Of a stretch of 64,000 nucleotides of DNA, positions 53,891-59,812 are shown piece after piece. Where the stretch lies: the NCBI GenBank assembly GCA_951813565.1, contig OX638351.1:480001-544000 (forward strand), in the 5' to 3' direction. The first letter of the stretch is position 1. Each line of letters opens with the position of its first letter. The stretch comes from an uncultured Poribacteria bacterium. Its GTDB lineage: Bacteria; Poribacteria; WGA-4E; WGA-3G. The translations under genes were made by a program, and so were the position numbers. Under the pieces are notes generated by a model. It had not been told where the DNA came from. It saw nothing but the letters and a program-made list of their open reading frames with translations, and did no database searches.

Positions 53891-55420
53891 TCAAAATTCA
53901 ACCAGTAGCTGTGGGATAATTGCCGCACTTCGCGTAGGTTTTTCAACGTTATTTACTTGATACACAAGTCGCGCTAAAGCACCTTCCGTGAAATGCCAGG
54001 TCAACGCACCACCCAGTGTTGACCAAACCTGTTCATCAGGTTCTTGGTTAAATGCAAACGTGCTAAATTTCTCCATATTCGGATTCCATACATCATACTT
54101 CAACCGAACATCTAAAGTTTCTGTCAAAGGTAACTCAGCGTGGAGATAATATCCTTCCACCGTTGCGTTGCGATCTTCCGATGGAATTGGAATGTATAGA
54201 TATTTCAAGAGTTGTGTATCTTGTCCACGAACCCATTCTGCGGCAAGATCAAATCGCCACAACTTGAAACTTGTCGCCAGACCGACACGGCGTTTATAGA
54301 GCAACGTTGACGGGTTAACATCACCGTTTATAGGATTAAACGGATAACTATTGCCATCAAAATAGGATGCACCAAGCCAAATCCGCTTTCCAAAAACAGG
54401 AAGAGTGCCATTCACATGAACAAACAACGGCGGACTGTTATTTCGGATCGGTTTAAGAACACCGCCCCCACTCCCGTGCGGGCCGATTCGGATGCCTGTT
54501 CCCACCGTTCCCTCCGTGACAGTGCGGAGTGAATCTGGACCATCCGCAAGCGATAGCACATACGAGACGGGACCTACGAAACCGTTTAGTTGAAATCCGC
54601 GGTCAGAAATAAAACCGATGTTCTTTCGAACCAGATTATATAGAGGATTCGCCGCAGCGTCAGACTTCGTATCAATACCGAAACCGTGTCGAAACCGACC
54701 GATTTTCATAGACGCACCCTTTGGTAAAACGGGTAATCCTGTCAGGATAGCGTAAACAAATCCGTGGTCGTCTGCAACCTGTGTTCCTAACGGAGAAGTC
54801 GTCAGTAGCTGCTCACCTAATATGCTAACATGATCGCCGACATTCGTTGTTACCACAAATTCAGCAACGTGAATAAGCGTAGTACCACTGTTCCAATTGT
54901 CTCTATCAGGTATCAAATCCTGTCCGCGAGTTGGACGGCGGATATCCAATGCGCCGCCGAATATAAGGTCTCCAAACACACCACCGAGAAAATCAGAGCT
55001 ACCAGTATCCTCGGTTGCATCAGCGTCATCAAAACTAAAAACGTCTCCGTCATCAATATCTAACGCTTCATCCGATGCAGAGAGAACGTTTGAAGGTTCA
55101 ACATTTTCAGGTGTACTGGCAGCATCACCTGGGTAGGAACGGGCAAGAAGTTCAGCGATATTGCTAAATCCATCTTTATCTGAATCCGTCTCTTCAATAC
55201 GAAGGAAAGTTGACTGATTCATACCGTTGTGTAGGAATGCTCTGCCGTAGGGATTAGGCGAATCCCCACCCTTCTTTGAAAAATGGCATACGTTACAACC
55301 GCCTGTCCATTTATATTTAGCCTTGAACATTTTATAAAACGCTGGCAGAGCAAATACTGACTGCCCTGCGATCATAGCCCAAAAGAGAGCCATCGCGCAG
55401 AAGAGCAAAATTTTGCGCAT
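53891..55420 (-). CDS. Monoheme cytochrome c fused to an outer-membrane beta-barrel (Cyc2-like architecture)
   Basis: Signal peptide; LPAF...CNVCH (55297-55283)...NPYGRAFLHNG; DSDKDGFSNIAE loop; acidic linker; porin-like strands (KIGRFRHGFG, GYYLHAEL, RLKYD) and terminal Phe. Confidence 0.7.
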   Translation of the reverse strand: MRKILLFCAMALFWAMIAGQSVFALPAFYKMFKAKYKWTGGCNVCHFSKKGGDSPNPYGRAFLHNGMNQSTFLRIEETDSDKDGFSNIAELLARSYPGDAASTPENVEPSNVLSASDEALDIDDGDVFSFDDADATEDTGSSDFLGGVFGDLIFGGALDIRRPTRGQDLIPDRDNWNSGTTLIHVAEFVVTTNVGDHVSILGEQLLTTSPLGTQVADDHGFVYAILTGLPVLPKGASMKIGRFRHGFGIDTKSDAAANPLYNLVRKNIGFISDRGFQLNGFVGPVSYVLSLADGPDSLRTVTEGTVGTGIRIGPHGSGGGVLKPIRNNSPPLFVHVNGTLPVFGKRIWLGASYFDGNSYPFNPINGDVNPSTLLYKRRVGLATSFKLWRFDLAAEWVRGQDTQLLKYLYIPIPSEDRNATVEGYYLHAELPLTETLDVRLKYDVWNPNMEKFSTFAFNQEPDEQVWSTLGGALTWHFTEGALARLVYQVNNVEKPTRSAAIIPQLLVEF

Positions 55421-55480: not shown

Positions 55481-56458
55481 TTAATACGCCTCAAGGTCAA
55501 TCTCTTCTTCGCTAAACCGGATGTGCGCTTGTTTTATTAACGCTTCTATTTCATCCCACTGCTTACGCGTCTCGTCAGAAATTCCTTTTTCATTAAGTGC
55601 TTTAGCAAATTCAGTGAGCGTTTTGCTAAACTTATCTTGCATCTCGACGTACTCTTCCTTCTGATCAGCATTTTTCGGCGGTTCAAAATCGGAAATACCT
55701 TTGGCGTATAAAGCAAGTTTTTTAGCAGCGGCTACCGCTTCTGCTTTTCCCTCGCCTTTGTCAAAGTAGTCAAAGATTTCAAAATAGGCATCCACCATTA
55801 AAATCATGAGTTCCTTCAAGTCCTCAACTTCAGGCATCTCCTCAGGTGATTCTTCCGGTGGTGGTGTCTTTTCCGCATCCGATTTTGGCTTGCGTTTTAG
55901 AAATAGCGCATAGCTCATGACCAGTGTTTTTTTCGGGATCAAAGCGACAGCTTTTGATGCCTCTTCATGCCCTTTAACGGCTTCAATATCCTTACCGACC
56001 TTGAAAGCATCGTCTATTCCCTTGCCAACAAATTGCTTGAGAAATTTCGCTGATGCAATCGCATCCGATTCCTTGTGTTCATAGACCGCTACTTTCACGA
56101 TCTTTCCCTTCATGTTAAGTCCAACGGCACCGTCAATAGTACCACGCGGGCCTTTCACATCAACGAACAGTACCAAACCGATCGGTTTCTTTTGATCACT
56201 AATCGGAATATAGAAGATCGGTTTTTGGTCTTCTTGCCGAAGTTTAGCCCCTAATTCTTTCTCAATAGATGCGATTTTGTCTGGCTTGAGTATAACAGTT
56301 CGTTGAACAAATTTTTTCGCTTTTGGGAAGATAGCAGCGAGTTTCTCACCTGGCCACTCCGTTTCATGCGCGTCACTGAGTAGTGGGGTAATTACCATCA
56401 AGGAAACTAACATAAGCAGCATGCCCGTATGAGACGGACGGTATATTTGGGAATTCAT
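55481..56458 (-). CDS. Secreted FMN-bind-like domain plus C-terminal helical bundle
   Basis: VGLNMKGKIVKVAVYEHKE..FLKQFVGK..DIEAV fits the FMN_bind fold; C-terminal helices LKELMILM...IKQAHIRF. Confidence 0.65.
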   Translation of the reverse strand: MNSQIYRPSHTGMLLMLVSLMVITPLLSDAHETEWPGEKLAAIFPKAKKFVQRTVILKPDKIASIEKELGAKLRQEDQKPIFYIPISDQKKPIGLVLFVDVKGPRGTIDGAVGLNMKGKIVKVAVYEHKESDAIASAKFLKQFVGKGIDDAFKVGKDIEAVKGHEEASKAVALIPKKTLVMSYALFLKRKPKSDAEKTPPPEESPEEMPEVEDLKELMILMVDAYFEIFDYFDKGEGKAEAVAAAKKLALYAKGISDFEPPKNADQKEEYVEMQDKFSKTLTEFAKALNEKGISDETRKQWDEIEALIKQAHIRFSEEEIDLEAY

Positions 56459-56516: not shown

Positions 56517-57533
56517 TTAGTCTGACTCCTCAACTTTGACCATGAAAGTAGGAAACAGAATTTGATCGGTGTGCTTAAGCTGACCGAAAATCTGATAGAC
56601 TCCAGCTTTCGGAAATGTAGTCATGAGCATTACAGCTGGGCCGAATTTCTCTGGCGTTGTACCTTGATGCTGATGTCCGGTTGCAGGAGGCTTTTTCATT
56701 TTATGTCCGGCATGCGGATCTTTCTTCATCATCTTGTCTGTCCGTTCATTCATAGGAACTGTACCATGCGTATGCAGTATACCATCTAAACGGGTACTTA
56801 CGATAGCAAAATGCATTGGTGCATCTAAAAATGGAACGAGATCAGTAATCGGTTTTCCATCGCGCGAAAAATGATAGGTGATATGAACCATCTCACCTGC
56901 CTTGATTTGTTCTGGCACTTTTATTTTTACGTGATATTTGGATGTCCCTTTACCATCAATGATAGAAACAGCTTTTGTAAACCGATCTCCGCCCTCTTCT
57001 GTATAACCAAAAACAACTTTTTCCCGCTGAAAATCATCAGAAATATCTGCCATTTTCTTATCACCTTCAACATCTACATACAGATATTTCGCGAATTCGG
57101 CATCTGCAGTCATCACATCAAGTGCAAGAATATATCTACCAGCAACAGGGAAAGTAAAGTGCACTGTATAAGTGCCTTCAAGTTCCGCCATCATGTCCCG
57201 TGACTCAAAATCTTCGGGATGAATATGTCCGATGATCTGTAGGTTCTCACCGACTATTAGCACATGCAGAATCCGGTCATGATGTATCATAAGGTCTGTA
57301 AAAGGTTCTCCCTTCGCATCAGTAAGATGAAACATCAGGGCTGCAGATACACCAGCCTGAATCTTTTGCGGCTCAGTGTGAAGCTTAACATTTAAGTCAG
57401 CAGTTTTATCTGCCTTATGTGTGCTGTGCTTCTCATGTTGCTCGGTAAAACCGAAGTCTACAAAAAACAGTGTAGTTACAACTATTGCTATAGCAAAACG
57501 AAAAATGAAAAACGTGGAAATTCGGGATAGCAT
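56517..57533 (-). CDS. His/Met-rich secreted putative heavy-metal-binding protein with two Ig/YtkA-like domains
   Basis: HHDRILHV..GHIHP, PFLDAPMHF..LHTHG, HAGHKM, HQHQ, FP.AG.Y twice; ATG 57533 after GGAGG. Confidence 0.7.
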   Translation of the reverse strand: MLSRISTFFIFRFAIAIVVTTLFFVDFGFTEQHEKHSTHKADKTADLNVKLHTEPQKIQAGVSAALMFHLTDAKGEPFTDLMIHHDRILHVLIVGENLQIIGHIHPEDFESRDMMAELEGTYTVHFTFPVAGRYILALDVMTADAEFAKYLYVDVEGDKKMADISDDFQREKVVFGYTEEGGDRFTKAVSIIDGKGTSKYHVKIKVPEQIKAGEMVHITYHFSRDGKPITDLVPFLDAPMHFAIVSTRLDGILHTHGTVPMNERTDKMMKKDPHAGHKMKKPPATGHQHQGTTPEKFGPAVMLMTTFPKAGVYQIFGQLKHTDQILFPTFMVKVEESD

Positions 57534-57652
57534 TTTAATTCCTCCATACATTTAACCCGTAAATTAAGTATAAATTCAAATAGATCAATTTCCCGTTGCC
57601 TCACACAAAGGTAGGGAAAGGAAATCGTTCAAATTATTTGTAAAAGTTACTT

Positions 57653-58087
57653 TTAAGAAGGGGTGTACGGAGGGCCGCGACGGGATATGTCGCTATTTAA
57701 AAGAGAGGTAAATAGCTTAGATGGGGATGGGAGATGAAGCAATATCTCCTGATCAGTAGGTAAAGTCGCAGAGAACGGAACAATAGAAACGATTTGGTGT
57801 GTTAACGATTCACGGATAACGTCTCCATTATGTGAATCGCTGGGGAGAATAAGTTCTAAGCTATTTAAACAGCAAGCAGTCTCACTTTCTGATGGTGTTT
57901 CAGATTCACTTGCGGCATCTGTTTTATGGCAACAGGACGAACTTGTTTCAGCATATTCCATCTGTATTTTTTCAGATAAGCCACTACACAAGATTTGTCC
58001 AAAAGCCGCACAGAATAGTGGGCATACAGAATAAACGCAGACCAATACTGCAAGTAAGATGGGAAATTGCCAATGTTTTCGCAACAT
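57653..58087 (-). CDS. Cys-rich DUF2946/CutF/CruR-like leader ORF with C-terminal RGPP motif
   Basis: ATG 58087 after GGAG; hydrophobic N-terminus with CPLFC, two CC pairs, Pro-rich tail ending RRGPPYTPS. Confidence 0.75.
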   Translation of the reverse strand: MLRKHWQFPILLAVLVCVYSVCPLFCAAFGQILCSGLSEKIQMEYAETSSSCCHKTDAASESETPSESETACCLNSLELILPSDSHNGDVIRESLTHQIVSIVPFSATLPTDQEILLHLPSPSKLFTSLLNSDISRRGPPYTPS

Positions 58088-58144: not shown

Positions 58145-58174
58145 ATTATACACCAAAATTCAAAAAAGTTGCAA
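58145..58174 (-). promoter_or_regulatory. Sigma70-type promoter of the RGPP-leader operon
   Basis: TTGCAA-18 bp-TATAAT on minus strand. Confidence 0.6.
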
Positions 58175-58240
58175 GAAAAAATTAGAAGACGGGTATAAAA
58201 AATTTTGCCACATAGATTGGATTGAGAGGTATTAAGAGTA

Positions 58241-58561
58241 ACGTGAGTTTGATAAAAGGATTCAATTTTGAATGTTGTGTTTCGTTTACGTTCATCTTGG
58301 CACCGAAATCAGAACAAGTGCCTTTGCTCCGTGAATCAACGCCAAATGCGCGTTTGGCATTTGGCGGGTGCGGTATGTCCGTTGAAGCCACATAGCACTC
58401 CTACGGAGCGCAAGAACTTGAAAACCTAACTTCTATAAACATAGCACGCCGCTGGCGTGCTGCAACATATTCGGCATCAAATTTGGATAGCCATGATATC
58501 GTGTTGGATTCCTCTAAATCATTGAGTCAAACTTACGTTAATATTATTATCAAACTCACGT
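58241..58561. mobile_element. IS982-derived MITE (321 bp)
   Basis: Same IRs as the IS982; 8-bp direct repeat taagagta (58233-58240, 58562-58569); extra degenerate internal IR near 58527-58538. Confidence 0.9.
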
Positions 58562-58852: not shown

Positions 58853-59812
58853 ATGGCAAATATAAAAATCCCCAAGGGATGGGAAATCCCAGAAAATCAA
58901 GTAACTCCTGAATCAGCCTATATTAACCGTAGAAAGTTTATCAAAGACCTCGGCATTGCAGGTGCTGGCGCGTTGTCGCTTTTCGGCACAAGTGCTTGTG
59001 CGCAAGAAAGCAAGGTTGCGAAACAACTTGAACCCTATCGCATGCAGACTCTTGAGGCTAAAAAGAACAAAGAATTCACTGTTAAACGGGAACAAACTGA
59101 TGAAATTGTCGCAGCAACTTACAACAACTTCTATGAGTTTACCAGTTCAAAAAGCACTGTTTGGAAACGGGTTGAAAGGTTTAAAACGCGTCCGTGGGAG
59201 ATTGAAATATCCGGGCTCGTTGAAAAACCGATGACCTTAGATGTAGATGACCTAATTAAACAGATGCCCCTTGAAGAACGTATCTATCGTTTTCGTTGTG
59301 TTGAAACTTGGGCAATGGTTGTTCCCTGGATCGGTTTCCCAATGAAAGCGTTGCTTGAAAAAGTTCAACCAAAGTCTGAAGCGAAATACGTAAAGATGGT
59401 CACATTTATGGATCCTGACGTTGCACCGCATCAAAACAATTTTGGTTTGCCGTGGCCTTATGTTGAAGGGTTAACACTCGCGGAAGCCATGAACGACCTA
59501 ACGTTAATGGTTGTCGGTGTCTATGGACATATCTTACCGCCACAGCACGGAGCACCCATTCGGTTGATTGCGCCATGGAAATACGGGTTTAAAAGTATCA
59601 AATCTATTGTTAGCATTGAACTAACCGACAAGAAACCTCGAACCTTTTGGAACGTCATACTTCCGAGAGAATACGGCTTTGAAGCAAACGTTAATCCGAA
59701 CGTTCCGCATCCGCGTTGGTCGCAAGCCACTGAATGGATGATTGGCTCAATGGAGAGACATCCAACAGTGATATACAACGGTTACGGCGAATCTGTGGCG
59801 CATCTTTACTAA
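58853..59812 (+). CDS. msrP: Protein-methionine-sulfoxide reductase catalytic subunit MsrP
   Basis: Tat motif [45 protein letters not shown]. Confidence 0.95.

Follow-up and report, generated by a model that had tools for sequence, protein, structure and literature searches.

The stretch of DNA analysed here (the window, 64,000 nucleotides) likely carries a stall-operated translation switch. The Pro-Pro codons of a leader with RGPP near its C-terminus would mask the GGAGG Shine-Dalgarno (SD) sequence of the next gene, and a ribosome stalled at the motif would strip them off (probability about 0.75). That the two arms are complementary, that the motif is conserved and that codon choice is constrained is established at the level of sequence, whereas formation of the helix on free mRNA and the block of initiation at ATG 57533 are predicted by folding. 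The mechanism itself is known from systems of the CutF, SecM and uDF_RQH type; what appears to be new is an anti-SD made of the arrest site's own codons. Such an arrangement had been proposed in a first-pass annotation of this DNA, and the RNA part of that interpretation is backed by folding, by a locked CCU wobble, by covariation of the flanking pairs and by a pairing-free contrast group among the relatives.

Table 1. Leader, helix and target operon: positions in the window
Feature	Position	Strand	Remark or basis
Leader ORF, 144 aa	57653..58087	(-)	Hydrophobic N-terminal segment (likely export signal), 7 Cys, C-terminal RGPP
RGPP codons CGC GGC CCU CCG, residues 137-140, predicted arrest site	57668..57679	(-)	Sequence; arrest from PMC12992588
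CPLFC, residues 22-26, closing the hydrophobic segment	58010..58024	(-)	CPxxC in 127/130 homologues
Other conserved cysteines C34, C52-C53, C72-C73	57869..57988	(-)	Homologue comparison
Small local hairpin GCGAC/GUCGC within the leader, over Arg-Arg codons	57677..57693	(-)	Fold
Candidate sigma70-like promoter 5' of the leader, TTGCAA-18-TATAAT, 10/12	58145..58174	(-)	Consensus match alone
Anti-SD arm CCUCCGUACA, Pro-Pro-Tyr codons + one base (Pro139-Pro140-Tyr141)	57664..57673	(-)	Fold and relatives
SD arm UGUAUGGAGG, GGAGG at 57545-57541	57541..57550	(-)	Sequence; GGAGG invariant in alignments A1-A3
Second short helix 57664-57661/57555-57558 and AU-rich inner stems 57652-57566, joining the arms	57555..57664	(-)	P 0.37-0.99
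First target gene, 338 aa: N-terminal helix, His-rich linkers, two predicted Ig-like beta-sandwich domains, YtkA-like hit	56517..57533	(-)	Function inferred
Second gene, 325 aa, FMN_bind-like domain	55481..56458	(-)	
Third gene, 509 aa, CxxCH motif and beta-barrel-like C-terminus, weak match NF041762	53891..55420	(-)	

Leader, target operon and signal

The leader ends in RRGPPYTPS and the stop codon, with RGPP four codons from the stop and the Pro-Pro pair at residues 139-140 of 144. Judged by hydropathy only, its N-terminus consists of a basic start followed by a hydrophobic segment; mean hydropathy before CPxxC is 1.7-2.9 in 127 loci. Homologues of the leader were found in 109 of the 111 genomes of the family (E<=2e-14), and weak matches (E<=1) in 43 genomes outside it. 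Of the 130 loci fetched, one is the window's own, 109 come from the family genomes and two are second copies; the other 18 belong to the 43 weak matches and were picked among the best-scoring matches listed. All 130 carry R[GAS]PP near the stop (111 RGPP, 18 RAPP and 1 RSPP), 0-7 codons away from it, and the motif is still kept where leader identity falls to 25-40%. None of 2,721 long ORFs of this genome contains RGPP, in agreement with the depletion reported in the available text of PMC12992588. Seven cysteines, putatively metal-binding, are present in 108 of the 127 CPxxC-bearing leaders. No Pfam or NCBIfam family was found for the leader. Among 13 aligned leader homologues no HMM match to DUF2946 was obtained at E<=10, and one showed a weak match to DUF6769 (E 0.068); look-alikes in the ESM Atlas were unnamed clusters and one DUF6769 set at 0.95. 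The promoter consensus scan returned 10 sites, against 11.3 expected by chance. Upstream of the leader, msrP is transcribed divergently (58853-59812, +), and GC-richer palindromic stretches lie between the two genes, in 58182-58470.

Comparable leaders have been described, and we draw here on the available portions of the cited papers. In the CutF-cutO system of Rhodobacter capsulatus the ribosome stalls at PPP and melts an intergenic stem-loop that contains the anti-SD (PMC9973294; bioRxiv 10.1101/2025.02.05.636593). Like CutF, our leader is short, Cys-bearing and putatively exported, with a C-terminal proline motif, and its proposed stall would unmask the SD of the next, putatively metal-related gene. 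Unlike CutF, it uses RGPP, has the Pro-Pro codons themselves as anti-SD, with 119 nt between the two arms, and does not match DUF2946. The properties by which CutF-like leaders were filtered (PMC9973294) recur here: a length below 150 aa (144 aa), Pro-Pro within the last 15 residues (139-140 of 144), the gap to the next gene (119 nt) and a Cys/His metal motif (CPxxC in 127 of the 130 loci). CruR of Bordetella pertussis (Bp2923, DUF2946) has about 145 aa, a Cys motif and RAPP a few residues before the stop, and heads a metal operon (PMC9426467). The two leaders are alike in size, Cys motif and R[AG]PP near the stop; they differ in that ours has a predicted SD-masking helix, which does not appear in the available text on CruR (PMC9426467), and lacks a DUF2946 HMM match. 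CruR works via Rho-dependent termination, and copper relieves its stall (PMC9426467). Moreover, RAPP/RGPP uORFs before metal-homeostasis genes encode small exported or membrane proteins with conserved Cys/His (PMC12992588); the leaders studied here share with them the C-terminal RAPP or RGPP (129 of 130 loci) and conserved Cys. In the available text of that paper 'stem-loop' and 'secondary structure' are absent, and the output mechanism is left open.

The three-gene target run opens at ATG 57533 and ends at 53891 (-), with a terminator-like hairpin behind it (53889-53872). Invariant His and Met residues are found in the predicted domains of the first target. Foldseek searches with its structure model (pLDDT 69, 26 sequences) gave just generic Ig-fold matches at 8-13% identity, so the structure names no metal. 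Close homologues of this protein (54-86% identity) are Poribacteria records and two 'uncultured bacterium' records. No leader ending in R[AGS][PG]P was found upstream of target homologues outside Poribacteria (18 loci, up to 1.5 kb of flank) or upstream of three copies of the target gene in families f1 and f3. The operons of relatives contain outer-membrane efflux proteins, a multicopper oxidase and a YHS protein.

We propose that the ribosome would arrest with Pro139 in the P site and cover the entire 5' arm, as the known RAPP/RGPP peptides suggest; this geometry fits the arrest shown for CruR, in which the P site holds the first Pro and the A site the next one (PMC12992588). As in CutF, the leader would be exported during synthesis, and its cysteines, at least 66 residues from the stall site, would reach the periplasm. 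The last Cys precedes the first motif Pro by a median of 66 residues in the homologues, roughly the length that ribosome tunnel and translocon together would hold, so the cysteines could be periplasmic during the stall. By analogy with CutF, the operon would be turned on when a soft metal, in all likelihood copper, prolongs the stall; the efflux and multicopper oxidase genes in the operons of relatives fit this direction. Without the signal, export would pull the chain free, the ribosome would terminate five codons later and the helix would re-form.

The probability given above includes a version that we consider rather unlikely, in which the same RNA switch works in the other direction or on another signal; the RNA mechanism is common to both. 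Either the stall would be the default and be relieved by metal, which would switch the operon off as with CruR, or the seven cysteines would report periplasmic disulfide or redox state or export stress rather than a metal. For such a version speak the relief of the CruR stall by copper (PMC9426467), the disulfides invoked in the CutF model itself (bioRxiv 2025.02.05.636593), the position of CPLFC at the end of the hydrophobic segment, with which it may be cleaved off, the divergent msrP at 58853, and the FMN_bind-like and CxxCH proteins among the targets. However, the efflux-type outer-membrane proteins and the multicopper oxidase of the relatives suit induction by excess metal, as in CutF, and the first target is rich in His and Met.

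Helix and codon choice

The leader stop and ATG 57533 are separated by 119 nt, in which a consensus scan found no internal promoter or terminator. Folding of 57525-57700 (-) yielded -43.1 kcal/mol (z -3.39), a stability reached by 0 of 200 shuffles; over the wider region 57500-57740 the helix was kept (z -2.02, 4 of 200 shuffles). The stem expected in the first-pass annotation is therefore predicted on the minus strand. The claimed complementarity of CCUCCGUACA (57673-57664) to the SD-bearing UGUAUGGAGG (57550-57541) was recovered as nine pairs (57673-57665 with 57541-57549, one G-U) with P 0.99-1.0, the tenth base, A57664, being shared (P 0.37 with U57555 of the second short helix). Two of the inner pairings named there, AAGUA/UACUU (P 0.74-0.93) and CAAAUA/UAUUUG (P 0.94-0.97), were also predicted, but the register UUUCCC/GGGAAA was not the preferred one; instead, GGAAAU pairs with AUUUCC immediately upstream. 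The idea that the RGPP codons act as the anti-SD applies to the Pro-Pro and later codons, whereas Arg-Gly takes no part; the Gly wobble base, unpaired at this locus, is paired in 42 of 58 relatives. Genome-wide, 5,357 ORFs of at least 100 aa have 141 Pro-Pro dipeptides within their last 12 codons, and this is the only one with CCUCC in frame and GGAGG-ATG within 200 nt. A search of Rfam returned no curated family, only lysM-TM7 at 20.5 bits against a cut-off of 61.5 and on the opposite strand. A start at ATG 57551 was rejected, as this codon lies inside the helix and is missing in most relatives.

Across the relatives, the next gene opens with GGAGG-ATG in 58 of the 130 loci and without GGAGG in 72. 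In genera g1, g2 and g5 the first downstream gene encodes a YtkA-like protein (c1). Families f2 and f3 have a DUF3347-like protein (c7) in its place, with genes for an efflux protein and a multicopper oxidase behind it, and g6, g3 and g4 have either a barrel protein (c0) or a YHS protein (c3). The same helix closes on both c1 and c7, which BLAST does not group together. Its pairing probability (CCUCC:GGAGG) exceeds 0.5 in 49 of the 58 GGAGG loci, with a median of 0.99, and it is the only consensus helix of g1 and g2; five of the nine loci below 0.5 have longer gaps of 144-249 nt. A conserved stem, which had been anticipated, is predicted as the closing helix, but the inner stems have no conserved register. 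We rejected a conserved inner structure, since consensus folds show just the closing helix in g1 and g2 and little more in f2 and f3. The inner region alone has a median z of -0.9 (16 of 50 loci below -1.64), and the counterpart of the second short helix is 63% paired in 35 loci and absent from the consensus folds. The inner stems are lineage-specific and turn over between lineages.

A Pro-Pro dipeptide and a consensus SD alone dictate four of the five core pairs, and therefore the free positions carry the test. In the GGAGG group the first Pro wobble is nearly always U (55 of 58 loci; the others have A twice and G once, and C is absent), compared with 49 U, 22 C and a single G among the 72 loci of the other group. 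As a baseline, CCU makes up 18% of the first codons of Pro-Pro in this genome, 30% of the other leader Pro codons (100/332) and 1 of 58 codons for the invariant Pro of CPxxC. When each of the 50 loci with gaps <135 nt was compared with the average of 12 synonymous recodings, the codons present in nature held the SD more firmly in 48 (median 10.1 vs 6.1 kcal/mol). For 47 folded g6 loci led by c0 (gap <215 nt) no start-region partner of the Pro codons was predicted.

These loci bear on an unlikely alternative, in which the stall chiefly affects transcription or the survival of the mRNA, through Rho access like CruR, and the helix is secondary or incidental. Since RGPP is kept in the 47 loci where the Pro codons are unpaired, a helix-free output exists in the leader family; the leader is kept in all 72 loci without a GGAGG-led next gene, which implies another output there. 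In addition, the first 90 nt past the stop are U-rich with more C than G in both groups (C 0.18-0.23, G 0.14). Nevertheless, such an output leaves both the 55 of 58 CCU codons without any CCC and the covarying flanks (see below) unexplained, the gap has no terminator-like site, and the two outputs can coexist.

Two further loci are of note. In the one g1 genome without a leader match (L205:1280-1501, genome G100), the target gene, GGAGG and a remnant of the gap sequence are kept, with TTGACA about 80 nt upstream; the switch has possibly been lost there. The RSPP leader (L152, genome G060) precedes a c7 gene with an AGGAGA start, and its Ser-Pro codons UCUCC could pair with GGAGA in a shifted register.

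Modelling of the stalled ribosome

Stalled ribosomes that prevent an SD-sequestering stem-loop, described as intergenic, are known from SecM-secA, MifM-yidC2 and VemP-secDF2 (PMC10987492, PMC7897499). Computationally, our locus has what characterizes SecM-type control: an SD-masking helix with one arm beneath the predicted stalled ribosome. The targets of SecM, MifM and VemP are translocation machinery, unlike those of our loci, where no sec or yidC gene was found downstream and the targets are YtkA-like, DUF3347-like, YHS and barrel proteins. For uDF_RQH of Alteromonas, located upstream of secDF2, reporters revealed that stalling at RGPP disrupts an SD-masking stem-loop (PMC10987492). Both systems combine an RGPP leader with a stem masking the downstream SD, stalling being predicted in our case, but uDF_RQH monitors secretion and not metal. 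Its stem-loop 2 was compared by the text description; whether it takes in the RGPP codons is shown in Fig. 5a of that paper. According to the available text of PMC7897499, no SD-masking hairpin is predicted for ApcA, ApdA or ApdP. The anti-SD likeness of CCN codons is noted in PMC12697547, in its available text without a tie to arrest peptides. Our literature search, with figures and subscription papers outside its coverage, found no paper stating that arrest codons double as anti-SD, and a search on the secM repressor helix gave no match.

With an assumed footprint of 30 nt (-15 to +15 around Pro139), the modelled ribosome spans the whole 5' arm and lowers the SD opening cost from 10.9 to 3.8 kcal/mol, whereas footprints at codons 127-134 cause no drop. 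For the binding site, the stalled model gives an opening cost of 6.6 instead of 13.3 kcal/mol here and a median of 8.0 instead of 11.9 over the 58 loci, with a drop of more than 2 kcal/mol in only 41 of them. The SD of the stalled model is mostly paired to weak alternatives (unpaired probability 0.25 here, median 0.17).

The helix might also be real and merely couple translation, any ribosome that finishes the leader opening it briefly without a regulated stall. Such coupling would agree with the footprints at codons 136-145, stop included, all of which cut the SD opening cost to 3.3-6.1 kcal/mol, and with passing ribosomes that transiently opened the stem of an arrest-dead RGPP leader (PMC10987492). 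We regard it as improbable, because the motif is retained in all 130 loci even though leader identity falls to 25-40% and RGPP is absent from the 2,721 long ORFs of the genome, and because all seven Streptomyces RAPP/RGPP proteins tested caused arrest (PMC12992588).

Flanking pairs and tree-aware tests

Beyond the core, 225 of 348 cells at six free flanking positions are Watson-Crick, compared with 62-117 in slid registers. Pairs are swapped at the Gly/Ala wobble (U-A to A-U; 26 and 13 loci), at the second Pro wobble (A-U to G-C; 12 and 18 loci) and in the codon after the second Pro (A-U to U-A; 21 and 20 loci). In 31 aligned loci, chosen for diversity from 50 with gaps <135 nt, paired cells amount to 86.5% vs 76.0 +/- 1.4 after shuffling, and cells changed on both sides number 41 vs 16.7; neither value was reached in 500 shuffles. 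Flanks match within clades (3.5/6 in g1, 4-5/6 in f2 and f3) and not across them (1.5-2.1/6). Within g1 the excess over row permutation is small (106 vs 97.6 +/- 3.5; 75.7% vs 73.9%, 18/500), and much of the flank covariation is a split between clades. Furthermore, in 16 loci where c1 lies 1.25-1.5 kb from the leader, 50 of 96 flank cells are still complementary (52% vs 65% in adjacent loci), and therefore part of the flank signal is inherited.

We built a quick tree of all 130 leaders, with the sequences cut before the motif, and counted changes by parsimony. In the GGAGG group the first-Pro wobble changes 3 times, compared with 12 for the control Pro, while the 69 non-GGAGG loci with CPxxC show 13 changes at the first Pro and 11 at the control Pro (Fisher p 0.049). 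Tree-aware tests of independent pairs, underpowered with 1-4 pairs per position, were not significant. The covariation that the first-pass annotation suggested looking for in orthologues is thus present against shuffling but does not reach significance once the tree is considered.

In all 69 non-GGAGG loci with CPxxC, CCU or CCC encodes the first Pro, while 62 of them use CCA or CCG for the control Pro. This points to some pyrimidine preference independent of the helix, due perhaps to ancestry or to the tRNA favoured at the stall site, and is unexplained by the helix. That the pairing is due to chance altogether, Pro-Pro codons always being anti-SD-like and CCU being kept through ancestry or tRNA preference, is very improbable despite this preference and the non-significant tree-aware tests, since a tRNA or ancestry effect permits CCC, which occurs in 22 of 72 loci without GGAGG and 0 of 58 with it, and since the flanks match within clades and not across them.

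Implications and further leaders

The stall-operated switch would have a wider meaning if RAPP/RGPP carries a second code, which we put forward tentatively. As Pro-Pro codons read CCN-CC, one synonymous choice, CCU, gives a perfect anti-SD, and this choice would turn the stall site into a plug-in switch for any GGAGG-led gene behind it. As part of this tentative reading, the second code would be engaged in the present leader family on two unrelated targets and released, with CCC returning, before a selenoprotein gene without GGAGG. Small RAPP/RGPP proteins that precede metal or redox genes number in the tens of thousands, and the control of the next gene is mostly open according to the available text of PMC12992588; if general, the second code would be a standard output for many RAPP/RGPP leaders whose mechanism is open. 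It offers a one-codon test for any such leader, with CCU locked where GGAGG follows and free where it does not. The occurrence of both states, GGAGG-led and non-GGAGG, within one lineage provides a within-family contrast that makes the dual coding testable. Caution is required with standard arrest mutants, as Pro-to-Ala exchanges or recoding can damage the RNA switch along with the stall.

In the g6 loci L058-L140 (for example L067:2258-3298, -), and also in L141, L142 and L148, the first gene encodes a signal-bearing barrel-like protein with a weak match to PF13557. In 59 g6 loci this gene contains an in-frame TGA read as C-P-A-U (the search pattern required TGA), followed by a short hairpin that is SECIS-like by eye; the barrel gene behind the leader is likely a selenoprotein. 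When read through, it has no match in NCBIfam, and in the available text of a 2026 selenoproteome review no such barrel is listed. Two barrel homologues in this genome, L161 (G000:C1:2495435-2496385, -) and L162 (G000:C1:4586046-4586978, -), carry U-G-A-U, that is two in-frame TGA codons, after the signal peptide, and the genome has selB and tRNA-Sec.

A second leader-like ORF is located at G000:C1:1054500-1054881 (+), about 940 nt before a 755-aa ORF. It is His-rich, contains CAAC and ends with a C-terminal RAPP; its first Pro codon is CCA, so that no CCUCC is formed. The ORFs near it encode what we take to be ZnuA-type and COG0523-type proteins.
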